Source: Euglena gracilis
Taxonomy: Eukaryota
Length of the DNA stretch: 64,000 nt
Direction: 5' to 3'
Assembly: GCA_039621445.1 (NCBI GenBank)
Contig: CP154954.1
Coordinates: 6,769,425-6,833,424, forward strand
A program made the translations under genes and the position numbers. Shown here piece by piece: positions 3,001-49,670 of the stretch; within the stretch, counting starts at the first letter, position 1; every line of letters starts with the position of its first letter. Below the pieces are notes generated by a model, which saw only the letters and a program-made list of their open reading frames with translations, made no database searches and was not told where the DNA came from.

Positions 3001-5944
3001 GTCCTTGGTTCCGGCCGACCTGTCAGTATGGGTGATTCGTCAGGTTCCCTGGTACGGGCCGGCCTGTCAGGTGACAGTTTCCCAGGGGGGGGGGGTAGTT
3101 GGGGCCCTTGTTTTTTTTTGTGCAAAATTATTGGAAAGTTTAAGTTTTTGGGTAAAATGGTGGTATATGTTTTTGAGTTGTGATTGGTTATATTCAATTT
3201 GATCAAATTCTTGCAAAAAATGGTCAGAAACAAACTTCTTGTGGTGCATTGGTGTTTTTTTTTGTAAATTTTATTTTCAAAATAAATCTGAAGGACTGAC
3301 AACATTACACAACCCCAGCCTTTTGAACCCCCCCCCCCAAACTTTTCAGAGTCCCACCCGGGAACCTTTCAGAGTCCCCAGCCAACCTATCAGTATTGGA
3401 AGCTTTCAGGGTTTGGTTGCTGTTACGAGCCAAACTGTCAGGTGATAGGTGGGGGGGAGCTATATGAAATTTGATAACCCCCGAGAGTTAGAGGGTTAGA
3501 GGGTGTAGGAAAGGTACACTGTGAAAAAATTACGCGAAAAAACCATGGTATCCCATACTTCTTGTCTCCTGTATTTTTGTCTGGACTGTATCCCGTTATT
3601 TTTGGGGAAGAGGTGCAGACCACCTGACCCATTCCCTCATGGTCAGTGGGATGGGTGATTGGTCAGGTGGGCGATGGTGGTGTGCCTTGTCGGCCCCCGG
3701 CCTGCCGCCGTACATCATCCTGGTGGTCATCCTGCTGCTCAACCTGCTCATCGCCATGATGGGCAACACGTATGCTTGCGTGCAGGAGCAGGCCGAGAAG
3801 CGCTGGTACCTGGAGCGGGCCAACCTCATGGCCAGGGCGACTGGGAGGTTGAAACGCCCCCTGGGAGTAGGGCAACAGCCCAAATCCCTGAATTGATCTT
3901 GACCCTCCACAGTCTTTCCTGTACGTCTCATCTGTGCCAGCCAGATCAAAGTACCACACGTTTCTCCTGTCTTCCTTGTTTCAGTGCGACACTTGTTTCA
4001 TCCTCACCCGGTCCGTCTCCCCCCTTTTCACTGCAGTGCCCACGTGTCATCATTTATCTATTTCCTTCCCCATGATTGCCTCTGTTTAAAGCACCTTTTG
4101 ATTTAAATTCTGTTTGACATGACATGTATAAATTTTACCCCCCCCCCCTATGTCCAACGACCCCCCTATGTCCAATGACCACCCCCCCCGGTCAGAGGAC
4201 ACCTTTTCGGAGGTTTGACCAAATTTTTGGTCCAGGCATGAAGCGCCGGGACGAAAAATTTTGCCCAAAAATTGGCCAAAAATTTGGCCAAAGTGCCATT
4301 TTTGATACTTTTTGGACAAAAATTTGTCAAAATTGCCCAAAATTTTTGGCGCAAAGCGCCGGAAGGGAAAATTTGGGCATTTTTGGGTGGTCAGGGACCC
4401 GGGTACCCACCAACTTTCTTTTGACCCCATGTCCAACGGCCACCCCCCCGGTCAGAGGAGACCTTTTTGGTCACTACCCTATGTCCAACGACCCCCCCCC
4501 CCCCCGGTCAGAGGACAGAGGTTACCGGTCATTGGACATAGGGGGGGGGTAGTCAATGGTCACATCCAAGTTTGCAAAGTTTTTCTCCTGGCAGGAATCT
4601 AGTCCCCACCTGCTGTCTACGCCTACCTTCTGGGCCAGCCGTCATTCTTTCCTGTTCTCTTGGCTAGCACAACTGTTTAGCATAAAAAGGTCGTGGTTGA
4701 TTGTCCCCTGCTGTTGCGCACCCACGTCAGGTCAGCAGCGGTGGCAACGGTGGCTGGCAGAGTGACGATTGGATCCCGCCCCCCTGCAGCGGGCGGCGTA
4801 CGAGTCCGAGCACAGCATGGACGAGATGCAGGAAATCCGGAAGGAATATGCCACCCCGTTCAACCCAGGCTGCTGTGCATCTCCATTGTGGCAGTGTGTG
4901 GAACAGGTGCTATACCATTGATTCCACTCGAGAATACACATGCTGTCACCATATTATTCCACAATTTTTTTTCTCACAGAGCAAGTAGTGCATGGAAAGC
5001 AGATACCAAATTCGGTGTTCCAGACCACCCACCCAGGTTTTTAGGTTTTTTTGATTGGTAAGTTCCCACGGGGTATAAAACCGCACAGCTACACGCACGC
5101 GCGCGCGCGCACACACACACACACACAAACGGGAAGCGGGTCTGGTGGGGAACGTGGTTATTTGTCACATGTGACCAGTGTGATGCATGCAATGTGACAC
5201 ATCACCTGCTCTAAGATCTTTCCGGTCCAAAAAAAACAGACAAGTTAGGTACCACGGATGACAATACCTGAGGGATACCCACTCAGGGGGCGTGGAGTGG
5301 GGGGTGAGACATTCGACACGGGCCGTGGGATTCAGGGCAGGGTTTGATATAAGGAGGGCGTACATGGTTTAGGTGGGGGGTGTCCCCCCCACCCCCCCTC
5401 CTGACCCGCAGGGGGGGGGGTCCGGACCCCCCCCCCCCACCTGCCAGGGGGGTCCGGACCGACCCTGGGGGGTACCCAGGACCCCCCCAAAGGGGTCATT
5501 TTTTTCCTCCGGCGCTTTGCGCCATTTTTTTTTTTGCATTTTTGGCACATTTTTTTGCCCAAAAAGTGCCCAAAATGGCACTTTGGTCGTTTTTTGGGGG
5601 GATCAAAAATTTTCGGCCCGGCGCTTCGTGCCGGGCCGGGAATCGGTCACCCGGACCGCCACTGTTTAGGTGGGGGGGGGGTCCCCCCCACCCCCCCTCC
5701 TGGCCTGCAGGGGGGGGGGGTCCGGACCCCCCCACCTGTCCTTGTATCGAACCCTGATTGAGGGTTGCCTTCCGCCCGCCCGGCCCGCCCAGCGGCGTGC
5801 CGCCGCCAGGCGGACTCCGTGACGAAGCACCTCGAGTTCTGCCTCACCACCACGTCGTGCTCCGAGTCGTGGAAGTTCCGCCGGCCGTCCGCGCAGCGCC
5901 GCCTCAGCGCCGTGCCGCAGTTCTCGATGCTGACCACCCCGTGA
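73..5944 (+). CDS. TRPV-like cation channel, paralog A, 3' part (S4-S5 linker, S5, pore, S6, TRP box, C-terminus); 5' part lies upstream of window
   Basis: Exons ~73-130 ([19 protein letters not shown]), 868-~945 ([24 protein letters not shown]), ~1082-1142 ([12 protein letters not shown]), 2190-2292 ([17 protein letters not shown]), 3710-3829 ([40 protein letters not shown]), 4792-4862, 5805-5944 (ends TTP-TGA). TRPV S5/S6/TRP-box motifs; colinear with paralog B. Confidence 0.9.
2190..2292 (+). CDS. Gene A exon: pore helix and selectivity filter region
   Basis: [31 protein letters not shown]; paralog at 37845-37947. Confidence 0.88.
3710..3829 (+). CDS. Gene A exon: S6 helix and TRP box
   Basis: [39 protein letters not shown]; nearly identical peptide at 39208-39327. 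Confidence 0.93.
4138..4549. mobile_element. TA-TSD MITE (family A, Tc1/mariner-like)
   Basis: TIR (C)nTATGTCCAA / TTGGACATA(G)n flanked by TA; near-identical copies elsewhere in window. Confidence 0.88.
5338..5756. mobile_element. hAT-like MITE (family C)
   Basis: TIR CAGGGTTTGATATAAGGA / TCCTTGTATCGAACCCTG; 8-bp TSD ATTCAGGG/ATTGAGGG; second copy at 19799-20189. Confidence 0.88.
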
Positions 5945-9187: not shown

Positions 9188-9896
9188 CCGTAGGAGGAGG
9201 TTCGATCTCGAACGTTCGAGCTCGAACCTCCTCGAACGTTTCTAAGCCCCCCCTTCAAGGGGGGGCTTAAAAATGTTCGAGGACCCTCGAACGACCTCGA
9301 ACAACATTCGAGGAAGGTCTCGAACCTCCTTGAACGACCTCGAACGTCGTTCGAGGAGGGTCTCAAACCTCTCGAATGACCTCGAATGACGTTCGAGGAG
9401 GGTCTAGAACCTCTCGAACGTCGTCGAACGACACTCGAGGAGGGACCTCAAACCTCCTCGAACGACCTCGAACTACATCTCGACCCTCCTCCTACGTACA
9501 TGCATACAGCTTTCAACACCAACATTCCCGTAATCCTTTTAGGTTTAGAAAAATATTTTTCCTTACGCAGTAATGCACTCATTCAAAAGTATTTTATTCA
9601 AAAATATTCCCATACCAAGAGAATTTCTGAGGTTATTAGAAAGAATAGGGTTAGAGTTAAGATTTCATCCCCAATGGTTTGCAACCATCCTGCTCATCGT
9701 TGCTCATTTCCCTCTACAGGGTACACAGCGAACCCAAAGAGTCGCCCATGGGGGGACCCGAGCGAGGCGCCGAAGGCGCCGAGGGGAGGGTCTCGAACGT
9801 CCTCGAACGACCTCGAACGACATTCGAGGAGGGTCTCGAACCTTCTTGAATGTCGTTCGAGGAGGTTCGAGGAGGTTCGAGACCCTCCTCCTACGG
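9188..9896. mobile_element. TCGA-rich TIR element (family E): palindromic arms around an AT-rich core
   Basis: CCGTAGGAGGAGG ... CCTCCTCCTACGG after TA; homologous composite at 39623-40647. Confidence 0.7.
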
Positions 9897-9907
9897 ACCC
9901 TCCCACT

Positions 9908-28600: not shown

Positions 28601-31600
28601 AGAGCGATGGGCGAAATGTGGCTGAAATGCACTTTTTGGCCCTGGCAGCGGGGATGTGTCCCGCGAAATTGTGTTGCATTGCGACCAGAGAGGTGATCAC
28701 ACAACTGGGGAACGATTCATTACACCCATGGTTTGGACAAAAAAGGTCGATGTGCGCATTTTCGCACATCAGCTACTCCAGGGTTCCCCCGAACAACGGC
28801 CAATGAATACCCCAGAATTCACACTGCTGAAAATGGTGTGCCGAATGGAACCTTCGTGTTACACAAATTTATGAAGTGGGTGTGAGTTTGCGTATTTGCG
28901 CACATCGACCACCTATGTAATTGTGTCAATGGTTGGTCTGCGCATTCGCACAAATCGACATGTGTTTCATCTGGAATGTTTATATCGTGGTCAGTGTGCG
29001 CAAATGCGCATGTCGTCGTGGTGTGCGCATTTTGCACTCCGACGACGTGCATCTTTACGCACGTGTTTGGTGTGTGCAAGTGTGCACACCGACCACGTGC
29101 AAATTTGCGCAAATCGGCTTTTTATTCCAATGTGTTATTTGACACAAGTTTTTTTTTCAATTTATGTCTGTTTTCAGATTGAGACTACCCCCCCCCCCCT
29201 ATGTCCAACGACCCCCCTATGTCCAATGACCACCCCCCCGGTCAGAGGACACCTTTTCGGAGGTTTGACCAAATTTTTGGTCCCGGCGTGAAGCGCCGGG
29301 ACGAAAAATTTTGCCCAAAAATTGGCCAAAAATTTGGCCAAGATGCCATTTTTGACACTTTTTGGACAAAAATTTGTCAAAATTGCCCAAAATTTTCGGC
29401 GTAAAGCGCCGGAAGGAAAATTTGGGCATTTTGGGTGGGTAGGGACCCGGGTACCCACCAACTTTCTTTTGACCCCATGTCCAACGACCACCCCCCCGGT
29501 CAGAGGACACCTTTTTGGTCACTACCCTATGTCCAACGACCACCCCCCCGGTCAGAGGACAGATGTTACCGGTCATTGGACATAGGGGGGGGGGTACGTC
29601 GTTGGAAGCCCTCCCAGTTATTGTTGTTTAAAAGGCTCAGGCGAGCGAGGTCTGTTCATATGCTGTGATACTTGATCGCATTCCTTTGCACAAATGTGTA
29701 CATGAGGTAGGTTTGTGTGCAAATGCGAACACATTGATGGTTTGCGCATTTTCGCATTTGCGCAAACCGACCTCATCTTCTGTCCCCGATAAACCCTGGT
29801 CATGAAAAGAGACAGTGTTCTGGGAAGTTCTGTCATGCCATAATGATTGAACTCCAATTCCATCGTCCAAGGTGGTGGCATCACTCGGCATCAAACCGGG
29901 ATGCAACACCCAGCAAGTACAGGTAGCACGTACACGCCAATACCCATATGCGCAACAGCATAATTACTTAGAAACCTTCGTGTTTCCTAACTCGCATCGC
30001 CAGGTGTGCAAGTAACAAAATTTTGTGTTCTCTGGTGCAATCGGGTTCAGGGGTTTTTGTGACAAAAAAAATTGCGCATTTGTCCGCATCAACAAAGAAA
30101 ATAGCTTAAGCGCGAGTTTGGCCGCCTAAGAGGGGGTGGTCACCCCCTTCTTTCTCCCTCCTTGACCACTGGTGGGGGGGGACCATCCAGTCCTCACCCC
30201 ATCCCGTGTTATTGTTGCGTCGCTGTCGCTCCTCACCCACTCACTCTGATAGCTTTACGGCTATCGTGGGGGCTCTGCAGTAACATTCCACGTTGCCCAC
30301 AAACCGGCACTTTAAATGCTTCCCTGGCTGAGCGTCGTAATTTGCCTCCACCGGCCGTCTTCAGCACATCCTTGCAAAGTCCTCCGTTATTGCATGGGAC
30401 TACGGTCCTGCACAGGCGCTGCTGGACCCAAGTTAGACCTCCCCAATCGATTTTAAGAGCTCATATTTCCCTCCTTCCAGTGGCCATTTTCTTCGTTTCC
30501 GTTTCCATTTATATTTTCATTTTTTTTGGGGTTTATTTAGCTTCCAAAATATGAATGTGCTTCCCCAGAATTGCTTTTTTTACAGGTTCTTTGTGTTGTT
30601 AAAGCGCTTTCATCACTTGTTGTGAAAACAGTTGTATTCTTTGTACACCTACAATTGGGGTATTTTCGAACCTGGATTGCTGTTTGGGAACCCAGCAAAT
30701 CGAAGGAAGTGTTGTCTGAAGAGTCCAAACACGCTCTCATCTTTTGACTCCTTTTTTTAAGCTTCAAAATGGCCACCACCTTTGAATTGCCGGTAAGTCC
30801 ACCTGTTCTACGTTATTATTATTGTATGTTTATTATTTTGTGTATTTCTATGCATACGTTGTATGATATTTATTATTTATTTTATTTTTTTTCCTTCGAA
30901 TTTGTAGTTGTCCAAATTCCTTCTTGTTTTACAGGATGAATGTTTGCCGAATCTGGCATATGGCCGAAGAATTGAGGTTTGGCACACGTCAGGGTGCCTC
31001 CCCCAACCCACGCCTGGCCCCATCACCTGCAAGCTGTTCCCCCTCGGCGGCCTGGAACAGCCGTTCCTCCACCCGGAGTCGCAGGACCCCATCCGCACCG
31101 CGATCGGCTGCCTGTGTGCCGGGGCCCAAAGCCCTGTCCAGGCGGGGTATGCCCCGGGGGCTGGGGTGTGGTGTGGTGTGGCTGCCGCTGTTCTAATTCA
31201 GCGAACCTCCCCGCCCCCGCCTGCCCCGTCACGCAGTGCCTCAAAATGGTGGACAGCCGCATCCCCCGCCCCGTGCAGCAAGCGCCGTGGCCCTGGCTGG
31301 GATCCTGCCGCCATCTTCCGGAAAGCAGATTGATGGGAATGCCGATCAGGATAGTTGCAGGCGGTCGGGGAAGGGGTGTTCTGGCAGATGACTGGAGGGT
31401 ACCAAAGGATTCCCATGGTGCCTGCCTCGGGTTTTTCTCCACTGGTATTTTCGGCGGTTCAAGGCCATGCCAGCCAACCCCCCCCCAAAGTGAATGAAAT
31501 GTTATCCAGCAATTTGTTCGAGATGGTGGGAGAGGTGCGACGCGGCATTTTATCTGAATATAAAAAAATATTCCTGATCCCAACCAGGCTTGTGACGACT

Positions 31601-34600
31601 GAGAGGGGAAGAAGCTTGTGGCTGGCTAAAAACGGCCAACAATGGATGAATTCGGGCAAATGTGAACTAAAGTGGCCAAAAGTGGCCAAGAGCGGGCGAA
31701 AGTGGGCAAAAGTGGGCAAAAGTGGGCAAATGGTCAAAAGTGAACAAAATTGGACAAAAGTGTAGGGAGTGGATGCAGGTGAGGTTGTGGACGGAGTGGA
31801 TGCAGTTTTTCAGGGAATGCAGGTATTGAAGGTACACCACTAAAGGACTTCAAAGGCGATGCTGTGCGATGCTGAAAGATGCCGGGCGATGCTGGGCCCA
31901 AGGGCATGGTAGACCTAAGCTGCTCGATCGCCAGGAACCTGCCGACAGTACAGTATGTGCCTGGCCCGCTGCACGCCCACCCTCCTGGTGTCTCTCATGC
32001 AGTCCGATTGCGTCGGAGATGCCTAATTTTCAACGCCCAGTCAAACCACGATGAGGGCCACCCGGGCCACGCGCCGCGGCTGGACCTCATCGTCAGCGCG
32101 GAGGTGCGGCAGGTGCTGGACAAGAAGTGGGACGCGTTCGGGCAGCGGATGTTCTACCGGAAGCTGGCGGTGGCCCTCGGCACCGTGCTGGCCTGGACCG
32201 CCACAAACATTGTGCCCGCCCAAGAATAGCCCACAATTCTTCGTTCGCTCACTCAGGGTTCGCTCACTCAGGGGCTTTAGGCGTGCCATTCCTGACGTTT
32301 GTCAGTTTAACTTGAGTGTTCTGTTTATTTTTTCATTGTGTCAGTGTTGTTGTTTTTTATGTAACAAACAGACATCTAACCCCCGATTACGTCTTACATT
32401 TTTGCACGAGGGTGGCATTGGTTGTTATCTCAAATATGTATCCTGGAGGATGGGACATTTTCACCATCGTCGTTCGTCCCATTCATGAAGTCGCCCACCA
32501 AGAGGGCTGCTCTGTCCCCCAACCATTACGGCTGTGTGGGCTACTGGGAGGCGGAGCACCCAGTCCAGGCCATTCCTTAACGATTTGAAGTACCCCCTGG
32601 GGGGTGGCTCGATTGCAGCTGGTTCAAATTCGGCTGAAATCCCAGTGGACCCCTCCCCCCCAGGGCGGGGATCCGCTGGGCCAGCTGCTGGAATTTTTTT
32701 TCTGGACCCCAAAACTTGCCAGAAATGCCCATTTTTTTGGGTTTTTTTTTGAACAAGATCACCCAGAAAAAATAAACTGAAAACCATTTCCACCTCGGCG
32801 CGCAACACCAGAAGAAATTTTTTTTTCAGTAGGGGGAACCCCCCGCCGGTGTGGTCTACCTGCTTTTTCCGGTGTCCAGCAAAATGGCTAGCAGACCCCG
32901 GGGGGGGGGGGGCTGCTTTAGCAATGGCCTGACCCGATCGCCCACGCCGCCATCCAGGCGCTGGAGGTGGCGGTGCTGCTGTCCACCGGCTTGCGCGGCA
33001 TCGGGACAATGTGGAACGCCTGCCTGCCTTCGAACCGCAGCGTTGGCCAGGAATGGGATGGGATGGTGGCATGCGGGGGTGCCCCGGCCCTTGGCCAACA
33101 ACTTGTCCACCGACCATCCCCCCAGTCAAATGCGATCTTTTTTGAATCTTTGATTTGGGTGAATTTTTGCTTTTTTTGGGATTGCATTTTTTTTTCTAAA
33201 GTAGTTGTTTTCGTTAATTGTTCTGGATGACCACCAAACAGGTTGAAAATGCCAAAACTGGCATAAAAAAGGCCAACAGTCCCCAAAATTGCCAAGGGTG
33301 TGTCCAAAAGCCACAAACAGTTGGCTTCAAATAGCCAAAAATGTTCATATAAACCCATACATGGCCATTTTTTCCACCTGAACTGCCCCCTGCCCCCCCC
33401 CCCCCCCCCTCTTTCCACCCTTTGGTCAGAGACAAATATTAGTGGTCATTGGGCGACGGGGGGGGGGGGGTTGATAAGCAGCTCCAGACTGATTTGTATA
33501 TGCTCAATTTGACCGACATTCTTTCCAGTCTTCGGGTGGGATGTCCTGCAAATGCACTCGACAATTATTCACAAAACCCTTCAATTTTTTTTGGATCTTC
33601 CCCTGCATTTTTTTCTGTTACTATCTCCATTGTCATCAGGTGTGTCCTCTGTGCTGTGTCCATTTAAGGTTAGGTCAAGGTTAGGATTAGGGTTATGGTC
33701 AGGGTTACCTCAATCTTTTGATGGTTTCTTCTGCGGTGCTTGCGACTGAAAACCCAGCCGCCCCAACCCCTTCCTGCGCTCGAGATTCACGGCGCTGCTT
33801 TGTTCGAGGTGACCCTTGGCAATGTGTTCTGTGGGCTCTACCTCATGTCGCTCGTCTTCCACCCAGGGCAACGTGCTGGGATTTTCCCCCATTCCCGACT
33901 TATTTGAATATTTTCTTTTTGGAGAGTTTTGTGTACTTTTGTGTAGTTTTGTTTGTTTGTTGGTGTATTTTTGTGTAGTTTTGTGCTCAGGCTGACATAC
34001 CCGTTCGCTTGGGAAGATGCTTATCCCAAGAAATGTTCATGCCAGAAGGACTGTCAGGCCCAGCCATGTGCTCATTCAAACCTTGTGTGACCCTCCCGGG
34101 AAGAATTGGTGGGGGTCTTTCTGACAGTCTTTTTGCCGGCTGGGTTTGGCCCGGTGTGCCCCTGGTGGGGTTGAGGTGCGTTTGGCCCATCCGGTGGCCA
34201 ATTTAATCAAAACTATTTTTCAACGGCTTTTGGGATTTTCTTGGTTCTTAGACTGAGCCCCCTGTTCCAGGGGGCTTTTATTGAACCTGCAGCTTCCCTA
34301 GAACACAACTCAAAGGGTAAAGAAACGTTTGTATTTCCCCGGTCCCAGGCACCGCAGGTATTGTCTGGGTTTCTGACCCGTCAGGTCACAAGCAGTCATG
34401 CCTCCCTCCAACCCCACCCCCCCCCTTCTCTCAGAGGTTTCCCTGTCCTCTGACTCTCCGAACTGCCGGGGTTGGTCGATGTCACCGCTGCCTTTGGTGC
34501 CCTCACTGGGTGGCTCCACGTGTTCTTCTTCTTACACAGGGCAGCCCCATCCAACTGTTGTCTGCACCTCTCCCTTGGGTTTGTTTTCACACTGCAGGGA

Positions 34601-37600
34601 CGCCTTTCTACCCGTTTCTTACGGGTCGAAAATATGTAAATATTTTCCTGGAGACACACACCCCGAAGCACTAATGACACATTTCCCCTAAATATGCAGC
34701 ATTCATGGACGACGTGGGCAGGCATGATCCAATAGACAATTAGAATTTCATCTCCTGTTGCCTCCTGGTGAGTGACACTGCATGACCAAAATTGCGAATT
34801 GTGAAGGCCGCTCTGATCTCACTTGGTTTCCGGTCCACGGGGCCATTCGTCATCATGATCAAGGAAATGCTGCAGTATGAGCTGACTTGTGCAGAGACTG
34901 AACTCAAAGGGAACAAGTGCTGTTTTTTCGGCTTACGAGGAGCTTGTGCCCCCCCCCCCCCCCCCGCGCGCCAAATGCACAACTGCCAGTATCCCCCCCC
35001 TTGTCCAACGACCACTAAATATTTCTACTGACGGAGGGGTGGTTGTTAGACAAGACCAGGGTCAAAATCACAAATGTCTGGGAAAAAAGATCTGCTGGTA
35101 AAATATTGCTACTGACCGGGGGCGGGGATCGTTGAACAAGGCCGGTCGTTGGACAAAGGGGGGGGGGTTGCTTCGTCCCACCGGCCAATCAGCCACCCTG
35201 GGAGTGAGGAAAAAAAATACCCAAAACAACCCCATGCCAATTCTGCTCCCAATCCTGAAGGGAAGTGTTGTTGGATGTTGGTTTTGGAGACGCAATCGGG
35301 GAAGCTTGAGCACTGTTCTCCTTCAGGCCGGTGAAGTGGTAAATCAAAGTAACGGAATCGAACCGTTTCGGTGAATTTCACCGCATCCACTGTAAGGCAG
35401 GAGCAAAGTTTCTCCCACCCCCCTTGCCCAATGACCAGGCTTGTCCAATAACCACCCCCTCCCTCCGGTTGCGATGTTGGTTCAATAATTGTGGGAAGAA
35501 TTGTATGATTGAATTTTGCATTTGCATTTGGTGGTTTCAGAGTTTTTTTTTCCTGTATTTTGTTTGGATGATTTTGTAAATTTGGCTGAAAATGCCCAAA
35601 AATGGCACCAGAAGAGCTTCCTGCGGCAAGGGCGCATGTACGTGCTGCGGGTGTGTTGACCCCGAGTGAGTGTGTTGTGGTCGCGGTGGGGGCAAATTTA
35701 GCGGTGTTTGAATTGAGTCCGAATTCCTTGCAAAGCAACCTCTGTAAAATCGAAGTCTCAGACAGAAAAACCAATCACTCCAAAAAAAATGTTTCCAAAT
35801 TACCCAGAATAAAAATTGATGCCAGTATGTGATTGCAACACATGGCAAAAAAAATACGTTGAAAGTTGGCAAAAAAAAGCCAAAAATGGTCACAAGTGAC
35901 CAAAACTGGCCAAAAATGGCCAAAAATATCCCAACATTGGTTAATTTTTTGCGGACCTGGGTTCCACCCCCCTTATCCTACGAACCCCCCCTCCCTGGTT
36001 CGGAAAAACATTGGCTGTTTTAGCGACCGCCCCCCCCCCCCCGGTCGGAGACGGGGGGGGTAGCTGGGATAACCCCCGGGGTGTGATGGGTGGTGGGTCC
36101 GCAATTGGTGCTCGCTGAGCTGTAATTTGTGGACACCGATGATTTTGTGGTGATGATTTTTTGATTTTTTGTGGTTCTGGATTTTTGCAATTTTGGTAAT
36201 TTTTTTGCCACCCCAAATGCAGCCTGTTCCTCCTTGGGCTAGAGGTCTGCGGCGTGGGCCAGCGGCGGACGTGCGACGGTTCCTCTCCGTCATCGTCGCC
36301 CTGCTGCTGGGCTTCACCGTGGCCCTCTACCGGCTGACAGTCAGCCCGGAGCAGTGTGGCTTGGAGGCCTTCGCCGACCGGCTGTGGCCAGGGTGCCTGG
36401 AGGGCATGGATTTGGGACCCTCGCGAGTCCCTGGACAAAAGCACAATGCCACAAAAGTCGTCCCTGCGTGTTGAACGTAGGAGTATGCTTGCTGGGTGTT
36501 GAAAAATGCTTTTTTAAGACGTCACGTGAGGGGAGGACTTTTGACGCTTGTGGATGCGCACACAAGTTGCGCACACAAGGCGCACACGACACAAAGGAAT
36601 TGATAAATTTTGATATTACACACCACATGTAAGCATCATACATCTGTGTAATTTGGAAGGAATGATCGGCTCAAGCATGTTTTCGGAAAACCCTAAAGAT
36701 GGTTTTATAAACATTTTCTCATTTGTAATGACAGACATGGGCTCTCTTGTTGCCTGGGGCCTGGAAGCGGAATGGCAAACCACGAGCCGATCCCCACTCG
36801 CCTGAGGGAATTCCAGGTAACCTTAAGCAGCTGCCAAAGGCAGCAGTTGTTAACGGTGGATTTTTTTTCAGCTTGGGTGGGCAAGTCCCTCGTGTCTCAC
36901 TTCAGCTCTCTCCCACAGTCGGCTATAATTTGAATCCTAAACCGAGACACATCCTAAAAAAAAGCCGAATTTTTCAGTCCAGTGATTCCGTGGATATTTC
37001 AAAAGTGTTGCCTGTGAAATCTCCTGATAATTTTTGGAACCCATTGACAAATTGAAATTAAGACGAGAAAAAATTACCGATTTTGAAAGTGGTAAAAAAT
37101 TCTGGATGATGGTTAAATATTTTTCGCAGTTGTCAGCGACGTCCCTCGGCAGCAGCTTCTCTGGATGATGCTTGCTCTGTTGAATTCCAATTGCTCCTTT
37201 TATCAACAGATTTCCCCCCCAACTGCAGCACACAGCAACCGATGTATTTCTGATGACGTACTCTACACTCCACAGTTTTATATTCTGGACAATTCAGCCT
37301 TCTTTGCAGAGCTCTTCAACTTTAGTTCTGCAAGTTCTGCAAGATGTGCTGTTCGCTGTATTGCTGGGTCAAAAGGGCCATCACCCCAACTTCACGGGGG
37401 AGAGCCAAGGTCCGGGTCAGGAATAAGAGGGGAGCAGCACTTATTTACAGGAACCCGTGGAGAAGTTCATCTTTTAGGCTTTTCATCAACTTGTTTTGAA
37501 CATGTTTTTCGGAAAACCGTAAACGTCCCCCATTGTGCGACCTTTTTATCAGGCCCCCAATCGTTCACAGGAACCCGTGAACTGCCAACAGGGCAATATT

Positions 37601-40600
37601 ATTCCAGAATTATTCCAGAACACCCTGGGACTTGGTAACACCCTGGGACACGAAAATGAAAGAAATCGACCCAAATGGGGCAGCTTTCTGAGTGGGCAGA
37701 CAGTGCAGGCTGGGTCGCTGCTCGCAAGCATTGTTCTCCTGTATTTCTCCGGGCAGTCAATCGCCGAATTTTTTTTCGAAAAATGATGGAAACCTTTTTG
37801 GCCTTTCAAGCGCGGTGTGTCGGTCCCTCCGGCGCCCTGCCAGGGGCAGCTGGTGCTGCTGGGGCTCGTGGGGGACTTCCCATTCCGGGAATATCACGAG
37901 CACTTCAGCGGAGGCCGCATGATGCTCATCGGGCTGCTCTTTACATTGCCCAGGTCCACCGACAGCCGGATTTCCACAGCAACAGTCCGCGGAAAGTTGG
38001 CTGCGTAGTGTGGCACGGAGGTGAGTTTCTTGATATGCTCACCCTACGGGGGAGGTTGGATTTCAAGGTCTTGCTGACAGGTCACGGGGGGGATGGCTGT
38101 GCCGTTTGCGGAGTTGCACTCCACAGAGTGAATTCTGTTTCCACCCCCACCCCAAACAGGGTCCCCAAACAGGGTCTTACTGGGGGTGTCGCTTAAGCCT
38201 TATGGTATCCCATCCCCCGGGGGTTGGTCCAGCCAGCCAGCACCCTATTTCCCAGCCTCAGACCCCCTCCCCCATCGACGTTTTATTTTTTCCCCGGCCG
38301 CTCAAAGGGCTGCCGGATGGTGATGGTTTTTTTTTGGCTTCCAAAGAGGTGCAAAATGGGCCAAAAAAGCAAAAATGGTCAGAAAAGAGCTGCAGGGCAA
38401 ATTTGGGTGTTTTCTTTCATAATTGACAGTTTTTTTGGGGGGTAGCATTTCTGCCGTTTCGGTTGTTTTTTTGGTATTTGGTTTGACCCCCAGTCACGCT
38501 GACGTTCCAGCTGGAGAACCTGTGGGTCTATCAGCCTCTCGGCCCCTGTGCTGTGGCCCGAAGAGAGCCATACCTTTTTCCTCCGTCACGGTGGCGTTGG
38601 CTGTTCTTAGGGGGCGGTATCAAGCCAGGTGGGGGTTGACACGGGTCCCCGGGTGAAGGAGGGGGGACTGCGCTATCTGCGTGAGGGTGGCGCGCACAGA
38701 GCATCTAGGTATCTCCTCCACCACTGTCAACCCGTAGGGCCCGACAGAGGGCCTAGTGATGAATTTTTCAACCAGCTTGGGTCATGCTTTGCATGCTTTT
38801 TGAACTGAGAGAGCTGAGTAATCCACCACCCGAATTTAAGACCCCCCTAAGCGCACTGGGTGGAAAATTTTCCTGGTGTTTCATTTCGTATCCAGATTTT
38901 AGGCACATATTGATAAAATCGAGATATTTTGAATTTTTGAGACCAAAAAACCTATGAATCTTCACACCGATTTGCACTTTGATGCAATAAAGGATTTTAA
39001 TTACTCTTGTGAAACCAAAAAAGCATCATGGTTTTTTAGGTCAGTTTTAATCATGCAAAAACAAAATCACACCCGCCGAAGTTAGACCCCTGGATGTTTC
39101 TAGCAAATTTGGGCTTCTTTTAGGGGAGGGTATAGTGGCATGGAAAGGGGGTCACTTTTCTCAGCACTGCTGTATATGTGTACACATCCCCCTTTGGGCC
39201 TGCTGCCATACATTATTCTGGTTGTCATCCTGCTCCTCAACCTGCTCATCGCCATGATGGGCAACACGTACGCTGCGGTGCAAGAGCAGGCCGAGAAGCG
39301 GTGGTACCTCGAGCGGGCCAACCTCATGCCCAGGCGGCCTTTCCTGCCTCAAATCATACACGCACACGTGGACACACAACCGTGGAAAAAGGATGCTGTG
39401 TTAACATCTGAGGTTGGGGTGCAATAAAATTCATATTTTTTTGTTAGCCAGAAGAAGGCGAATTGTTCTCCCCAAGGTTGACCAATGGGTGCTGCTGGAG
39501 CACAGGGTTTAACAGGAATCTGGAAGCCATGGTGATGGCTTGTGGTGTACATTTATGCAGTTATGGGACGGGAAGGTCGGTGCCCCCCCCCCCAAGAGGG
39601 AGGGGCGTCCGAGGGTGGGTTACCGTAGGAGGAGGTTCCAGCTCGAACGTTCGAGCTCGAACCTCCTCGAACGTTTTTGACCCTCCCCCTTCGAGGGGGG
39701 GGGCTTAAAATCCTCCTTGAACGACATTCAAGGAGGATATCGATCCTCCTCGAACGACCTCGAACGACCTTCGAGGAGGATCTCGATCCTCGTCGAACGA
39801 CCTTAAACGAAATCTGGATCCTCCTCCTATGTATATTCATTCAGGTATCAGTTGCAAGTCTTTTTTTGGAGTTTGTTACCATGGTTCATTGTTCTTGATT
39901 CTGCTTGTTTGTTTGCTTTTTTCTTACACAGGAATGCACTCATTCATAAATATTTTATTCAAAAAATATTCCCATGCCGAGGGAATTTCTGGGGTTATTA
40001 GAAGGAATAGGGGTAGGGTTAAGATTTCATCCCCAATGGTTGCAACCATCCTGCTCATCGTTGCTATATTTCCCTCTACAGGGTACACGGCGAACCCAGA
40101 GAGTCGCCCAACTAGGGTTAAAAGCATGGGGGGACCCGAGCGAGGCGCCGAAGGTGCTGAGCGACGGTCCCCCCATGTGTATTAACCCTAGTTTGGCGAC
40201 TCTTCGGGGTAGCTGGTACCCAGTAGGGGGAAATTTTCCACGCGTTTTAAAAGAAACATATTTTTTCTTATGCAGGAATGCCTTCATTCATATATATTTT
40301 TATTCAAAAATATTCCCATACCGAGAGAATTTCTGAGGTTATTAGAAGGAGAAGGGTTAGGGTTAAGATTTCATCGCGAATGGTTGCAACCATCCCGCTC
40401 ATCGTTGCTATATTTCCCTCTACAGGGCACACAGCGAACCCAAAGAGTCGCCCAACTAGGGTTAATGGGGGGGTAAAAGTAGGAGGAGGTTCGAGCTCGA
40501 ACGTTCGAGTTCGAACCTCCTCGAACGTTTTTGAACCCCCCCATTCGAGGGGGGGCTTAAAATCCTCCTCGAACGACCTCGAACGACCTTCGAGGAGGAG

Positions 40601-41209
40601 CTCGAACCACTTCGAACAACCTTCGAGGAGGATCGAGATCCTCCTACTACTGTCCATCCCACTACCATAACCCTCCCGGGCGTCCGGGACCATCCTGCTG
40701 CCCCCCTCACTGGATGCCCTGGGGCGGAACCGTCCTCTGCCCCGGGCGGCGTACGAGGCGGAGCACACGGTGGAGGCGATGCAGGAGCTGCGGAAGGCGT
40801 ACGCCACGCCGTTCGGCCAGCCCGACGCCGCTGTGACGCCGGACACCGAGTTCTGCCTGACCACCACCCTGCCGCAGGCCGTTGCTTTCCCCCCTCCGGC
40901 GAGTGGAAAGAAAGCCTCCCCGCTCACACTCAGGGAAAAACATACACGACATGACACGCACAACAGAACGCAATGCACACAAATGTTTTATTTGATAGAA
41001 TGGGCCCCGGAATGACTACTGACCATGGGTTTCTTGACGAATGCGAACACTGGCAAACACCTGCATGTTCACTGGGGGGTCAATGAGAGGAGACGACGGG
41101 GTTTGGGTCGCCTGCCCCCGGGATGAGAGGTGGCCTGTCCCCGCGCTCCGAGGAATGGAAGACACCGCGGCGACCCTCTTTGTTCTCGTCTGACCGCTTC
41201 AGCTGTTGA
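10614..41209 (+). CDS. TRPV-like ankyrin-repeat six-TM cation channel, paralog B, apparently complete multi-exon gene
   Basis: Mapped exons: 10614-10661, 11341-11450, ~13161-13316, ~17091-17190, (further low-complexity exons likely 18800-21700, unmapped), ~23100-23205, 24988-25077, 25438-25529, 26045-26214, 26589-26691, 27120-27174, 27489-27506, 27997-28120, 30363-30409, 31022-31135, 31228-31284, 32077-32217, 32521-32562, 32937-33044, 33782-33860, 34452-34533, 34821-34878, 36268-36385, 37845-37947, 39208-39327, 40745-40871, 41144-41209 (TGA). Joins from 24988 on stay in frame and give ankyrin repeats, WDYGP, pre-S1 LDKKW, S1-S6, [13 protein letters not shown] and a TRP box. Confidence 0.9.
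10816..10929 (-). pseudogene. Ty3/gypsy LTR-retrotransposon RNase H fragment
   Basis: LEVDNSDYAVDGVLSQ...LHPVAFLSRKL resembles the D(A)SD..G.VLSQ...PVAF.SRKL gypsy RNase H motif; isolated relic inside gene B intron 1. Confidence 0.75.
11341..11450 (+). CDS. Gene B N-terminal exon 2
   Basis: EVEAWLGSCLAGLVSHLALCLAETGAE, similar to gene [29 protein letters not shown]. Confidence 0.7.
11961..12020. repeat. 10-bp minisatellite (AAATCCCGAC)n
   Basis: About six tandem copies visible. Confidence 0.85.
12248..12438. repeat. Interstitial telomere-like repeats in inverted arrangement
   Basis: GGGTTAGGGTTA patches 12248-12317 facing (CCTAAC)n 12399-12438; degenerate tract also ~33666-33707. Confidence 0.7.
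13161..13316 (+). CDS. Gene B N-terminal helical (coiled-coil-like) exon
   Basis: DLPAQLRRLAAVVRAAEARLRRL...RQHRRKGP vs gene [24 protein letters not shown]...RRHRRKGP (44188-44373). Confidence 0.75.
13597..13906. mobile_element. TA-TSD MITE (family B, GGAAACTGTCAGGGTCCC subrepeats)
   Basis: TIR CCTA(C)nGGGAAACTGTCA / TGACAGTTTCCT(G)nTAGG, TA both sides; other copies ~2932-3097, ~7481-7727, 17927-18254, ~23689-24121. Confidence 0.85.
16122..16967. mobile_element. Family B MITE with internal 124-bp tandem amplification
   Basis: TA-CCTA(C)n ... (G)nTAGG-TA; units start at 16258, 16382, 16506, 16630, 16754, 16878. Confidence 0.9.
17927..18254. mobile_element. Family B MITE
   Basis: Same TIRs and subrepeats as 13597-13906. 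Confidence 0.8.
18281..18555. mobile_element. hAT-like MITE
   Basis: CAGGGTTTTTTTTT ... AAAAATATACCCTG; perfect 8-bp TSD AAGGGCTG. Confidence 0.9.
19799..20189. mobile_element. hAT-like MITE (family C)
   Basis: TIR CAGGGTTTGATATAAGGA / TCCTTATATCGAACCCTG; perfect 8-bp TSD CCCATCCG. Confidence 0.92.
22152..22670. mobile_element. Rearranged family A MITE (inverted left half 22152-22399, right half 22551-22670)
   Basis: Reverse-complement and forward matches to 4138-4549. Confidence 0.7.
23247..23491. mobile_element. hAT-like MITE (family D)
   Basis: TIR CAGGCTTCTTTTTAAG / CTTAAAAGGATGCCTG; TSD CCCAGGGC/CCCAGGGG; related right ends at ~6826 and ~10489. Confidence 0.87.
24124..24593. mobile_element. 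TA-flanked MITE with GGGCAATTG subrepeats
   Basis: TA-CCCGCGCCCCCCTGGGCAATTG ... CAATTGCCCAGGGGGGGCGAG-TA. Confidence 0.7.
26045..26214 (+). CDS. Gene B exon: ankyrin repeat and TRPV finger 3
   Basis: [23 protein letters not shown]...TTGSFF...VYFG, the TRPV ankyrin-domain G.FF...YFG motif. Confidence 0.93.
27489..27506 (+). CDS. Gene B 18-nt micro-exon (DLPDMY)
   Basis: Flanked by CTG-N5 upstream and N3-CAA downstream; paralogous ELPDIY at 63393-63410; completes LH.AV....MY ankyrin motif. Confidence 0.85.
27997..28120 (+). CDS. Gene B exon: last ankyrin repeat
   Basis: LLNAEGLTPLALAAAMGQDRMF (TRPV N..GLTPL.LAA..G...F). Confidence 0.92.
28280..28430. repeat. AT-rich (TA/TG) low-complexity microsatellite
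   Basis: Direct reading. Confidence 0.8.
28512..30130. mobile_element. ~1.6-kb TIR element with 4-bp TSD
   Basis: TIR CTTAGACGGCCAACCTCGCATTTAAG / CTTAAGCGCGAGTTTGGCCGCCTAAG; AGGG on both sides; no intact ORF; superfamily not assigned. Confidence 0.7.
29188..29594. mobile_element. TA-TSD MITE (family A), nested in a larger TIR element
   Basis: TA on both sides; same TIRs and interior as 4138-4549. Confidence 0.9.
30363..30409 (+). CDS. Gene B exon: linker with W.YGP motif
   Basis: (Q)HILAKSSVIAWDYGP, read by hand and absent from the ORF track; in frame with both neighbours. Confidence 0.88.
32077..32217 (+). CDS. Gene B exon: pre-S1 helix and S1
   Basis: RLDLIVSAEVRQVLDKKWDAFGQRMFYRKLAVALGTVLAWT (TRPV L..KW..FG...F). 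Confidence 0.9.
34452..34533 (+). CDS. Gene B exon: S4
   Basis: LSELPGLVDVTAAFGALTGWLHVFFFL joining in frame to [16 protein letters not shown] at 34821. Confidence 0.85.
36268..36385 (+). CDS. Gene B exon: S5 and turret
   Basis: DVRRFLSVIVALLLGFTVALYRL...AFADRL. Confidence 0.9.
39208..39327 (+). CDS. Gene B exon: S6 and TRP box
   Basis: [39 protein letters not shown]. Confidence 0.93.
39623..40647. mobile_element. TCGA-rich TIR element (family E) with duplicated core
   Basis: Starts TA-CCGTAGGAGGAGG; core copies ~39928-40120 and ~40272-40462 match 9567-9748. Confidence 0.7.
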
Positions 41210-41289
41210 ATAGGTTGCAAACAGTAGACGATGCCCAACAGTGAATGTGTCTGCAGTGAGTTTGCCAAAATGACTCTTTAGAACTTTAT

Positions 41290-42814: not shown

Positions 42815-45672
42815 ATGGCCAACCAGGTCAGAGAGGGCAAAGTTTGGCTCTCCCCAGGGGGGGGGGGGGTTGATATTTTTCCGCAATTTTTCCGCAATTT
42901 CCGCAATTTTCCGTTTCCGCAATTTTCCGCAATTTTCCCGCTATTTCTGCAGTTTTTTCCGATGACACCATTCTTTGAATTTGTGCGGCTCACCGTCTCG
43001 CAATTCTGTCGCTGGCACCTGCATTTCATGTGAATGCCATGCTGACCTGTGAACATTTCTACAAACGTTCCCAAATCCAGTTGCCACTGGTCACAGGATT
43101 GGGTGCGTCCTACCTGTGCATAGAACTTCAAGCGTGTTGATTTGTGCTCGCCTGCATCGACGTGGGTGTTGCGGTGTTCTGAACCTCACAATTGAAAAAT
43201 TTCTAAGTCCCCTCAAGCAGAAATGTGTATATTCCCGATATCAATTTTCCGCAATTTTTCCCGCAATTTCCGCAATTTTTCCGCAATTTTTCCGCAATTT
43301 TTCCGAAGGCTTCCGATATCAATCCCCCCTTGCTCTCCCCTAGTATGTTATTTTGGCTACATTTGCTTATTTTGAGCCATATGAGGCATGTTATGTAGGT
43401 TTTGTGGGTGGGTGGGTGGGTGGGTGTATTACCTGTGTGCCTGCTTGTCTTGGTGTTCATGTGGCGTGTCTGCTTGCGCGCGAGCGTGCGTGTGTGCGTG
43501 TGTGTGTGTGTGTGTGCGTGTGTGTGCGTGTGTGTGCGCGCGCACGCGTGTGTGTGCATACTTGAGTGTGTTTTCTTGTGTACCGGAAAACACAATTTCC
43601 ACCGACATTCGCCGACAATTTCACCCCAACGGCCTGGGTGGTCCAGTTTGGCAGGCAATGTGCTTCCCACAGCCCAATAGGGAGCCAATGTGCCAAGGAG
43701 GGGTGCGGGGGGTCCATCGTCCGGGGTCCACTGATGTCCTCCGCGCCCTGTGGCCGACCCCCCCGAGGGGGACCCCCGCCCGGCCCTCGCCCGGCGGGCC
43801 GAGGCGGTGCTGCACGGCGCCCGCCTCGCGGCCCTCACCGCGCAGCTCGCCCGCTGCCTCGCCCGCACCGCGGCCGGCGAGGCGCCCGGCGCCCCGGAGC
43901 CGTCCCTGCCCGGGCCCCCACCGAGCACGGTTTGCTGTGTCGGCGTCGGCGCCAGCCACAACCTGTCAACGCCGCGGAGTTGCCGCGTTCCCCGCGACAG
44001 CTTTTTGAGGACTCGGAGGTTTCTTTGGACATAATTTTCATACTTGGCAAAAAGAAATGCCCCAAATTCTCTCCAAGGCACTCTTCAACCTTCAAGGAAT
44101 TTGAACTTTTTGGCACAAAATGTGTACTATTATGCACCCCCCCCCCCCGGAATGACGGCCAAGAGTGTGGAGTGTCGGCCCGCGCCGCCCCCCGTGGCGG
44201 ACCTCGGGGAGCAGCTGCGGGGGCTGGCGGCGCTGCTGCGGACGGCGGAAGTGCGTCTTAAGCAGTTGCCGGCGCTCTGTGCGCGGCTGGCGGCGGCGGA
44301 GATGGAGGCGGAGGACCTCCGGGGCCAGCTGGAAGTCGCCCTGCGGCGGCACCGGCGCAAGGGGCCGCTGCCCCTCGGGCCCCGGATGGGCGATTTGTGG
44401 CAGTCCGGAGTTGTTCGCCCTGGCAAACTTTCTTGTTGTGATGTGTTCTTTCAATAGTACCTTTTGTATTTTCTGTTTTCATTTTTTCAAGTATTTTTTT
44501 TGTTTCAAACAAAGTGTGTGCACGTCATACATCTCTCTAAGGTTTTGCGACCCCCCCCCCCCGAGGGGGCGGCTGCAGCCAGCCCCGATTTGGGCCCAGC
44601 CCAGCCGCAGCAGCACCCCCCCCCCTGGGCTGGCTAGCCCAGCTAGCCAGCCCCTTTTTTGTGGGTCCAGCCCAAAATTTTTCGGCGCAATTTTTTTGAA
44701 TTTTTTTGAAAAACTGTGTTCAAAAGTGGCCAAAAATGGGGTTTGGGGGGCGTTTGGGGCATTTTTGGGGGTTTCAGATGCATCATTTTTTCAAAACTGT
44801 GTTTTGCAGGTCATTTTTGGGCATTTTTCCGATTTCAGTCCAGTTTCCATTTTTTCCGATTCCAGTCCCCGGTTCGGGTCCAGCCGGGGTCCACCCCCCC
44901 CCCCCGGCGGGCGGGCTAGCCAGCCCAAATTTCTAGCCAGCCCAAATTTCTAGCCCTAGCCCAGCAACCCCCCCGGGGTCCTTAAAGAGATGTATGGTGT
45001 GCGTGTGCGCGCGTGTTTCTGTGTATGTGTGTGCGCGAGTGTGTGTGTGGGAAAGTGCCAAGGGTGTCAAGCCTGTGCCGTGCTTGTTGCCACGCTCCTT
45101 CCCCTTTGTTTTAATGCCGGTTTCTCCCTCGCAGCCCTCTTGGCCCTGGCTCTCACCCTTGCCCTCGCCACCACCCGTGAACTGGCTGACCGCCCTGACC
45201 GCGCAACTGCTTGCACCTGTTTTTCCGCCCCTATCCCCCAAGCCCAGATTGCCAAATACATTTCTCCGCCAGGAATTTCGAATATTTTTTTTTTTTTTGC
45301 TGATTTTTGATGTCAAGATTGTCGGTACCGGGTTTATGACCACCATACAGCGTCGAAGAAATAGTCGGAATGGTTTGTGTTGAGGAGGCCGTTGCCCAGC
45401 CCGGACCTCTTCCCCGGCCGCCCCCTGCATCCCGTCCCCGCAGCCGCCAACGGCTGCCGGTCCCTCCTGGCGGGGCGGCCACACTGCAACGGCGTCAGCC
45501 CCTGCGTTGTGGTCTCAGCAGCACCGCCAGTGCCGTCGCCACCGGACCACGCACTGCGCCGCCCCCTCCATACAGGGTTCCGTGAGAACGGCCTGCGCAT
45601 CGCATTTGTTCGCCAGCAGTTGGGGCAGAGGGTGGGGTTGTCATTGCTTTTCTTGATTGAGGATTTTTGCTC

Positions 45673-45717
<45 letters not shown>

Positions 45718-49592: not shown

Positions 49593-49670
<78 letters not shown>

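Follow-up and report, generated by a model that had tools for sequence, protein, structure and literature searches.

How euglenid nonconventional introns arose and how they are removed has been an open question since the 1990s. A general transposon origin has been suggested before, as the first-pass annotation of this DNA noted: a MITE origin, CAG/CTG as TIRs and TSD-like repeats are in print (available text of PMC3935182 and PMC11282704). The present locus raises a narrower question, namely whether MITEs with CAG...CTG ends and 8-bp TSDs share the geometry by which these introns are cut out, and whether such elements are a source of introns. A link of 8-bp TSDs or hAT ends to the 3+5 spacers of the introns was not found in the literature searched.

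Genes and nonconventional introns of the window

The window (the whole stretch of 64,000 nucleotides that was analysed) is Euglena-type nuclear DNA and carries three genes for TRP-like channels (A, B and C) in tandem. The genes and the introns referred to below are as follows.

Gene A, 1..5941, + strand: TRP-like channel, 3' part; exons 100% identical to P0001 (EukProt EG_transcript_25325)
Gene A exons, + strand: 862-935/939, 1093/1097-1142, 2190-2292, 3710-3829/3833, 4792/4796-4862, 5805-5941
Gene B, 23104..40919, + strand: TRP-like channel, at least 19 exons, with ankyrin repeats and an ion-transport part; homology to P0002, P0007 and P0003
Gene C, 44302..63065, + strand: TRP-like channel, 5' two thirds, at least 18 exons, most of them 100% identical to P0007 (EukProt EG_transcript_3144)
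Intron A5, 4863..5804, + strand: nonconventional, 942 nt, ACC-CAG...GTG-CCGCC followed by G; hosts M1
Intron B1, 23194..24990, + strand: GCC-CAG...CTG-CCTGG followed by G; mapped by homology; hosts M4 about 50 nt inside
Intron C1, 44355..45147, + strand: gene C, 793 nt, GCG-CAA...TTG-GCCCT followed by G; hosts M6
Intron C6, 49495..49889, + strand: positions +4..+18 are CAGGCTGCTGTGCAT

In genes A and C, 19 of the 22 junctions were fixed through exact continuity with transcript-derived proteins, and none of these 19 transcript-verified junctions was of the GT/GC-AG type. Complementary triplets were found at positions +4..+6 and -8..-6 (spacers of 3 and 5 nt, 3/5) in 13 of the 19 and with 3/6 spacing in 2. 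Further, introns A3 (CGG..CTG, wobble) and A5 (CAG..GTG, one mismatch) were judged by eye to lie at 3/5 also, and introns C2 and C5 were outside the code. For gene B, whose junctions were placed through homology and selected with the splice code itself, 10 of 16 junctions showed 3/5 and 2 showed 3/6. When the three genes were combined, 25 of 35 junctions followed N3-CAG...CTG-N5, including two for which a wobble pair or a single mismatch had to be allowed, and 4 followed N3/N6. The first-pass annotation, which had the introns starting 3 nt before a CAG-type triplet and mostly ending 5 nt past a CTG-type triplet, was thus borne out.

The 3/5 rule itself has already been published and was shown by experiment (PNAS 2025). 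Knock-in experiments found the 3-nt donor spacer to be strict and the 5-nt acceptor spacer to be optimal, a 6-nt acceptor spacer to be functional as well, and fully synthetic introns that follow the splice code to be spliced (available text of PMC12501133). Note that where the acceptor spacer is 6 nt, as in four local introns, the sum is 3+6 = 9, not 8.

Six MITEs with inverted-repeat ends and 8-bp TSDs

Six MITEs with inverted-repeat ends and 8-bp TSDs, three of them perfect, had been proposed for the window, and all six were located at the coordinates given for them.

M1, 5338-5756, + strand: MITE, 419 bp, ends CAGGGTTTGATATAAG...CGAACCCTG (CAGGG...CCCTG); TSD copies ATTCAGGG (5330-5337) and ATTGAGGG (5757-5764), identity 7/8
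M2, 18281-18555, + strand: MITE, 275 bp, CAG...CTG ends (CAGGG...CCCTG); TSD AAGGGCTG at 18273-18280 and 18556-18563, 8/8
M3, 19799-20189, + strand: MITE, 391 bp, CAG...CTG ends, M1 family; TSD CCCATCCG at 19791-19798 and 20190-20197, 8/8
M4, 23247-23491, + strand: MITE, 245 bp, CAG...CTG ends (CAGGC...GCCTG); TSD copies CCCAGGGC (23239-23246) and CCCAGGGG (23492-23499), identity 7/8
M5, 42855-43331, + strand: MITE, 477 bp, CAG...CTT ends (CAGGGG...CCCCTT), between genes B and C; TSD GCTCTCCC at 42847-42854 and 43332-43339, 8/8
M6, 44526-44996, + strand: MITE, 471 bp, CAT...ATG ends (CATACATC...GATGTATG); TSD copies GTGCACGT (44518-44525) and GTGTGCGT (44997-45004), identity 6/8

The ends are CAG...CTG in four of the six elements. 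M1 and M3 belong to the same family (79.6% identity across an alignment of 437 columns) but carry different TSDs; they are therefore independent insertions. Truncated relatives of M4 lie at 6592-6827 and 10341-10488, and a one-ended fragment related to M5 lies inside intron A2 (approximately 1900-2060). The end shared by M1 and M3 had no match in a metagenome scan.

In an unbiased scan of the window, 4,764 inverted-repeat pairs were found, of which 6 had perfect 8-bp flanking repeats; two offset decoys yielded 1 and 0 such cases. The scan recovered M1-M4, the sole matches starting with CAG among its results, and the remaining matches lay within internally repetitive or palindromic arrays. M5 was missed owing to the low-complexity filter and M6 owing to two TSD mismatches. 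We conclude that the TSDs and TIRs are beyond chance and that M1-M6 are genuine MITEs, flanked by 8-bp TSDs and having ends that are mostly CAG...CTG.

Fit of the MITEs to the splice code

The likeness of the MITEs to the introns reaches past the CAG triplet: 21 of 29 introns have G as the fourth base of the inner end (CAGG...CCTG), as do five of the six MITEs. Further, the MITE TIRs were expected to supply the terminal stem, and their pairing is at least equal to that of the real introns (12-16 versus 9-15 of the first 16 positions). M1-M4 combine CAG/CTG triplets with 13-16 of 16 paired positions, M1 reaching 16/16 and M2 13/16. M5 ends in CAG/CTT, so its outermost pair is broken, and the CAT/ATG triplets of M6 are complementary, yet not CDG.

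The 3+5=8 arithmetic on which the first-pass annotation built is correct, since cuts placed 3 nt ahead of CAG and 5 nt beyond CTG would remove the element and exactly one copy of the TSD. In the model that we propose, M1-M6 would be non-autonomous DNA transposons of an E. gracilis-type nuclear genome that integrate through an 8-bp staggered cut and whose inverted repeats start with CAG(G) and finish with (C)CTG. The RNA of an exonic insertion would read t1-t8 / CAG...CTG / t1-t8, where t1-t8 are the bases of the TSD. The non-spliceosomal pathway of Euglena makes one cut 3 nt before a CAG and the other 5 nt past its paired CTG. In such an RNA both cuts would fall between t5 and t6, one in each TSD copy; t1-t5 would be joined to t6-t8, the element and one TSD would leave, and the original message would return without a change of base, provided that t6 is a purine.

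This proviso matters to the claim that an exonic insertion would be an instant, harmless intron. We applied the code N3-CDG...CH'G-N5-6 followed by R, plus a stem; in its published form the code favours a purine as the first base of the exon, and in a MITE insertion this base is TSD position 6. The base after N5 is G in M1 and M4 and C in M2, M3, M5 and M6. The geometric part of the claim is exact, and the rest is conditional on a purine at TSD position 6, present in two of the six MITEs. M1, with G after N5, conforms to the full published cis code. A purine at this place is a property of the insertion site, not of the element.

The cut sites of the introns were also compared with each other. 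Within the intron, 28 of 29 cases have a purine at +1 and 23 of 29 have C at +3; the downstream exon again has a purine at +1 in 28 of 29 and C at +3 in 19 of 29. The published purine counts (51/55 and 55/55; available text of PMC4770533) agree with these local cut sites. Intron and exon cut sites thus mirror each other, which is what duplicated t6-t8 would leave. A mirrored consensus could equally come from one enzyme that recognises both cut sites.

Search for traces of descent within the window and competing explanations

The MITEs could be ordinary passengers with 8-bp TSDs that build up in introns as harmless sites; nonconventional introns would then arise in other ways, the shape of an RNA-cutting enzyme would dictate the 3/5 ruler, and the match between the two would be accidental. 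Such a coincidence agrees with several observations. None of M1-M6 is itself an intron, and M1, M4 and M6 are nested in the larger nonconventional introns A5, B1 and C1. A second family of MITEs, with TA duplications, occupies these same introns, and intronic position is therefore uninformative on origin. Four of the six TSDs have a pyrimidine instead of the preferred purine at position 6, and the spacer sum is not confined to 8, given that a 6-nt acceptor spacer works too (available text of PMC12501133).

The two traces of descent that the first-pass annotation had named were not seen here. When the 19 introns from genes A and C were used as queries, none of them matched a MITE end to end. 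Further, when the 8 nt before CAG were compared with the 8 nt after CTG, the 29 local introns showed no excess of identity (81/232 versus 75.9 +/- 6.1 in permuted pairs, p=0.22), and the highest identity in any of the 29 was at most 5/8. The result was similar for the 17 transcript-verified introns only (43/136 versus 47.8 expected, p=0.88). The paralog-specific introns A1, A5 and C15, considered as possible young introns, gave 4/8, 3/8 and 3/8 with no 8-nt repeat. Note that A5 has a single boundary compatible with the protein and is absent from paralog B, in which 40746-40919 is one unbroken match. Intron C2 carries a 9-nt repeat (8/9) outside the splice code.

The absence of a TSD trace agrees with coincidence, but the local introns are old, because paralogous introns no longer align; the octamer test is weak for this reason, and loss of the trace is expected under the MITE-origin and coincidence views alike. 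Intron families are hinted at by the 15 nt at positions +4..+18 of C6, which are identical in the non-homologous intron A5; the string occurs exactly twice in the window, each time at intron position +4. The global alignment of A5 and C6 was not significant (score 9 versus -13.8 +/- 12.6 for shuffles, maximum 20), only the ends being common.

The strongest support for a link between MITEs and introns comes from the literature. Intron 4 of gapC in E. agilis ACOI 323, the only documented recently gained, strain-specific nonconventional intron, carries direct repeats of eight nucleotides at the junctions (available text of PMC4770533). This young intron speaks against coincidence, and so does the convergence of three independent features, namely ends of the form CAG(G)...(C)CTG, strong pairing in the terminal stem and a TSD as long as the two spacers together. 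We consider coincidence possible and, on balance, rather unlikely. Capture of foreign or filler DNA at staggered breaks, which would make both introns and junction repeats and render the MITEs irrelevant, is how the authors themselves read the gapC repeats (available text of PMC4770533) and would suit intron C2 with its 9-nt repeat and lack of a proper code, but it is improbable, as it leaves CAG...CTG inverted ends at an exact distance unexplained in a genome that demonstrably carries mobile elements with such ends and 8-bp TSDs. Overall, the MITE-intron link is partly supported, and the support for it from within the window is weak.

Superfamily of the MITEs

M1-M6 were compared with the DNA transposon superfamilies that make 8-bp duplications. 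The terminal motif of hAT elements is YARNG, which fits M1, M2, M3 and M5 (CAGGG) and not M4 (CAGGC) or M6 (CATAC). The Ac group of hAT elements has a weak target consensus, nTnnnnAn; none of the six TSDs has T at position 2 together with A at position 7, a comparison that concerns a weak feature of one group. P-like elements are presumably another candidate superfamily. No transposase was recognised among the 10 long ORFs of the window, none of which matched any Pfam family, and no report of hAT in Euglena was found in the literature searched. Short TIRs and an 8-bp TSD define hAT (PMC3942097), and both are found here: the TSDs are 8 bp long (three 8/8, two 7/8, one 6/8), and the TIRs are in the short range (10-25 bp), with 12-16 of 16 terminal positions pairing in all six elements. 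M1-M6 are thus candidate hAT elements, an assignment whose whole basis is TSD length and short TIRs.

Merlin was considered and rejected. The draft genome of E. gracilis has been described as containing two Merlin families with 8-bp TSDs (PMC8101967); like M1-M6, these are DNA transposons, and they share species and TSD length with them. Every Merlin TIR opens with GG, next to a TSD of 8-9 bp (PMC8101967), whereas the first triplet of M1-M6 is CAG or CAT. In TSD length the elements thus agree with Merlin, but their ends break the GG rule, since perfect TSDs place the start of M2, M3 and M5 at CAG.

Membership in a superfamily other than hAT that makes 8-bp duplications is less probable than not, in our judgement, and deserves some weight. 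Merlin is the only superfamily with 8-bp TSDs that we found reported in E. gracilis in the literature searched, where hAT is missing for Euglena; M4 and M6 depart from YARNG, and the target consensus is matched by no TSD. These points are set against the CAG starts of M2, M3 and M5 and the agreement of the short TIRs and 8-bp TSDs with the hAT definition.

Proposed mechanism and its reach

We propose, with moderate confidence, that M1-M6 are MITEs pre-adapted as introners for the nonconventional pathway and that some nonconventional introns, at least, probably stem from them. Within the window they are passengers only, lying in older nonconventional introns or between genes. A hAT-like transposase would mobilise them in trans, an exonic insertion would be spliced, and some share of the introns would have been born in this way. 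We doubt, and put forward only tentatively, the wider claim that most euglenid nonconventional introns stem from CAG...CTG transposons that duplicate 8 bp, the 3/5 asymmetry being an RNA image of the staggered cut. The first-pass annotation suggested that the splice code may be a fossil of hAT end geometry; the reverse direction, in which the elements happen to fit an existing RNA ruler, is equally possible.

If the TSD of the MITEs is the spacer sum, one mechanism would cover the junction repeats, the mirrored pyrimidine/purine junctions, the 8-nt repeats of gapC and the strict 3-nt and 5-nt spacers. Direct repeats at the junctions occur in 84.4% of E. agilis introns, and nonconventional introns make up approximately 72% of all introns of that species (available text of PMC12501133). 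If the reading of transposon descent is true, the intron released as a circle would consist of the element and one TSD copy, and the excision machinery may have co-evolved with, or been derived from, a transposon system. A TSD equal to the spacer sum would also explain how massive intron gain was tolerated by a gene-rich genome, and it would extend the introner principle, in which the element and one TSD are removed, to a non-spliceosomal pathway.

Comparison with known systems

The closest known system is that of the euglenid nonconventional introns in print (PMC3935182, PMC4770533, PMC11282704, PMC12501133), which have CAG/CTG at +4..+6 and -8..-6 and a terminal stem in common with the introns and elements described here. 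The available text of these papers further gives "TSD-like" junction repeats, a proposed MITE origin and 3-nt/5-nt spacers proven by knock-in. In contrast to the present analysis, that text (Milanowski et al. 2014, 2016; PMC11282704; PMC12501133) names no actual Euglena MITE families and no TSD length, and it contains neither a mention of hAT nor a remark that 3+5 equals the TSD.

The introners of Micromonas, stramenopiles, dinoflagellates and Fritillaria are MITE-like elements with TIRs and TSDs that become introns upon insertion, and they are similar in that a TSD is co-opted and the element is removed together with one TSD copy (available text of PMC11282704). Introners are, however, removed by the spliceosome, sometimes in altered form, whereas the Euglena pathway is non-spliceosomal and measures from the stem; introner TSDs are 3-5 nt where a length is stated (Micromonas, Amoebophrya), as compared with 8 bp here (available text of PMC11282704). 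The introner hallmark, many introns being copies of one mobile family, was not seen among the introns of genes A and C in this single window.

The maize element Ds, a hAT element, is reportedly spliced as a de novo intron, in work attributed to Giroux et al. in 1994. The likeness is that a non-autonomous hAT-type element in an exon is removed from RNA. Spliceosomal sites serve for the splicing of Ds, which is mostly imprecise, in contrast to the exact restoration that the Euglena geometry, as proposed here, would provide.

Gene models and intron geometry

The window (GC approximately 52%; plus strand T-rich across most of its length) contained a TRP-channel pore motif in two open frames. Protein searches matched EukProt EG_transcript_25325 (P0001), EG_transcript_820 (P0002) and EG_transcript_3144 (P0007), with the Pfam families ankyrin and ion-channel (channel part PF23317/ion-transport); we took the label "EG" to denote Euglena gracilis. 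Placement by tblastn of P0001, P0007 and a diverged third copy showed that the window carries three tandem TRP-like cation channel paralogs on the plus strand.

1-5941, plus strand: gene A; P0001 exons 862-5941 at 100% identity
23104-40919, plus strand: gene B; diverged third copy
44302-63065, plus strand: gene C; P0007, most exons at 100% identity

Of 22 junctions in genes A and C, 19 were fixed by exact continuity with the transcript-derived proteins; this procedure failed for introns C3, C7 and C11 (introns are numbered per gene). Thirteen of the 19 had a protein-compatible boundary with complementary triplets at +4 to +6 and -8 to -6, that is, 3 nt into the intron and 5 nt before its end (3/5), and two had a 3/6 geometry. 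By eye, A3 (CGG..CTG, G-U wobble) and A5 (CAG..GTG, one mismatch) were likewise at 3/5, and C2 and C5 lay outside both geometries. None of the 19 was a GT/GC-AG junction in any compatible register. In gene B, where the guide proteins were only paralogous and the splice code served as filter, so that the counts are not independent, 16 of 18 junctions were scored (one was skipped and one had no candidate); the best-scoring solutions were at 3/5 in 10, at 3/6 in 2 and at neither in 4. The rule given in the first-pass annotation, that introns begin 3 nt before a CAG-type triplet and mostly end 5 nt after a CTG-type triplet, held for most junctions.

Among 29 code-conforming introns, the triplets were CAG/CTG in 20 and the fourth base was G (CAGG...CCTG) in 21, as in 5 of the 6 MITEs described below. 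Intron C2 (207 nt; window 45192-45407) had no CAG/CTG-type pair at 3/5 distance, and the spacers of its CAA/TTG pair totaled 16; copies of a direct repeat of 9 nt, GCCCTGACC / GCCCGGACC (8/9 identical), lay on either side of it. The long intron C12 contained a 162-bp tandem repeat (58647-59077; 2.7 copies, 90% matches). A 124-bp tandem array at 16153-16940 (6.4 copies, 96% matches) was composed of a 43-bp unit, GGAAACTGTCAGGGTCCCCGG..., also present at 7.5-7.7 kb, 13.6-13.9 kb and 17.9-18.2 kb and in intron A3.

Six MITEs with 8-bp TSDs

All six MITEs of the first-pass annotation were confirmed, including their ends and the three perfect TSDs.

5338-5756: M1, CAG...CTG, TSD 7/8; with TSDs 5330-5764, within intron A5 (4863-5804)
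18281-18555: M2, CAG...CTG, TSD 8/8 (AAGGGCTG); upstream of the first gene B exon that could be recognised
19799-20189: M3, CAG...CTG, TSD 8/8 (CCCATCCG); likewise upstream of the first gene B exon that could be recognised
23247-23491: M4, CAG...CTG, TSD 7/8; approximately 50 nt into gene B intron 23194-24990
42855-43331: M5, CAG...CTT, TSD 8/8 (GCTCTCCC); between genes B and C
44526-44996: M6, CAT...ATG, TSD 6/8; within intron C1 (44355-45147)

A scan made without assuming CAG, covering 4,764 inverted-repeat pairs in the window, detected 6 perfect 8-bp flanks, compared with 1 in one offset decoy and 0 in the other, and 14 versus 3 and 6 when one mismatch was allowed. M1-M4 were recovered as the only hits starting with CAG; the other hits lay in internally repetitive or palindromic arrays. 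M5, which the low-complexity filter removed, and M6, whose TSD copies differ at two positions, were not recovered. Two previous TIR/TSD scans were too noisy and were excluded. Palindromic TCGAACG/CGTTCGA blocks (units of approximately 42 bp; 9213-9881 and 39650-40640) were a source of false TIR/TSD hits.

M1 and M3 were 79.6% identical over 437 aligned columns and their TSDs differed, so that they are two separate insertions of one family. Truncated relatives of M4 were present at 6592-6827 and 10341-10488. A second MITE family was also detected.

4138-4549, 29189-29593 and 9912-10323: copies of approximately 410 bp, 91-95% identical
22152-22377: partial inverted copy

Its inverted ends were poly-C/TATGTCCAA (poly-C/poly-G) and its flanking duplications TA, suggesting a Tc1/mariner or Stowaway-like family; the 8-bp geometry is therefore not general to MITEs of the E. 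gracilis genome. One copy sat inside an M4-like element. No transposase was detected in the window among 10 long ORFs, none of which matched Pfam.

MITE ends and the splice code

In the available text, the published code is written 5'-N3-CDG...CH'G-N5-6|R, and the sequences behind the two triplets pair with each other; it demands a donor spacer of exactly 3 nt, works best with an acceptor spacer of 5 nt and tolerates 6, and synthetic introns built to it are spliced (PMC12501133). The annotation's arithmetic, 3 + 5 = 8, is correct: splicing would cut between the fifth and sixth TSD bases in both copies, and an exonic hAT-like MITE would be removed together with exactly one TSD copy. Its claim of an "instant intron" stood in part. 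The ends and pairing suited the code (12-16 of the first 16 terminal positions paired in MITEs versus 9-15 in introns; outermost C and G paired in the minimum-energy fold of M1, M3 and M6 and of 6/15 folded introns), but the purine after N5, at TSD position 6, was present only in M1 and M4. Exonic insertion would thus yield an instant intron conditionally, depending on the target site.

None of the six MITEs in the window was itself an intron; intron A5, which contains M1, had only one possible boundary by continuity with the transcript-derived protein. An intron family matching the MITEs end to end, as the annotation envisaged, was not found among the introns of genes A and C.

Search for TSD traces in introns

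We compared the 8 nt before CAG with the 8 nt after CTG, using mismatched pairs as control. There was no excess in 15 introns (37/120 identities versus 2.86 per 8; p=0.91), in 29 introns (81/232 versus 75.9 +/- 6.1; p=0.22; maximum 5/8 per intron) or in 17 transcript-verified introns (43/136 versus 47.8; p=0.88). Three paralog-specific introns, all absent from gene B, scored as follows.

936-1092: intron A1, 4/8; uninterrupted gene B exon 36268-36408
4863-5804: intron A5, 3/8; uninterrupted gene B exon 40746-40919
61266-61497: intron C15, 3/8; uninterrupted gene B exon 26040-26213

The junction duplication predicted by the annotation was therefore not seen locally. Since paralogous introns can no longer be aligned, the local introns are old, which makes this a weak test that cannot refute an insertional origin.

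The bases next to the two cut sites mirrored each other: intron position +1 was a purine in 28/29 and +3 was C in 23/29, and in the downstream exon +1 was a purine in 28/29 and +3 was C in 19/29. Junction counts in the available text of an earlier study agree with this consensus (PMC4770533). It fits duplicated TSD bases 6-8 and equally fits one enzyme reading both sites.

Introns A5 and C6 had the same 15 nt, CAGGCTGCTGTGCAT, at their inner 5' ends (4866-4880 and 49498-49512, respectively), and their 3' ends were similar. They lie in different genes at non-homologous positions, and their full-length similarity was not significant; the common end may be a remnant of a shared mobile ancestor.

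Comparison with known systems

A MITE origin of nonconventional introns was put forward in 2014 (PMC3935182), and a 2024 review, in the text available, uses the term "TIR" for CAG/CTG and describes the repeats at the junctions as "TSD-like" (PMC11282704). Our full-text searches found no paper that tied an 8-bp TSD or hAT to the 3 + 5 spacers, and the PNAS paper of 2025 uses neither "hAT" nor "TSD" in its main text. According to the available text of a 2016 paper (PMC4770533), the sole strain-specific, recently gained nonconventional intron, gapC intron 4 of E. agilis ACOI 323, is bordered at its junctions by direct repeats of eight nucleotides, the longest among the introns analysed there, which the authors ascribed to double-strand-break repair. 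These repeats are what the annotation predicted for young introns, reported independently. The 3 + 5 = 8 idea joins several published facts. Of its parts, a MITE origin, TSD-like repeats and the 3/5 splice code were known before; what is new is that real MITE families have CAG(G)...(C)CTG ends and that their TSD length equals 3 + 5 exactly. Short TIRs and an 8-bp TSD define hAT elements (PMC3942097). E. gracilis also has Merlin elements with 8-bp TSDs (PMC8101967), which are alike in TSD length, but their TIRs start with GG, whereas the perfect TSDs here fix the MITE starts at CAG, and a Merlin identity was rejected.
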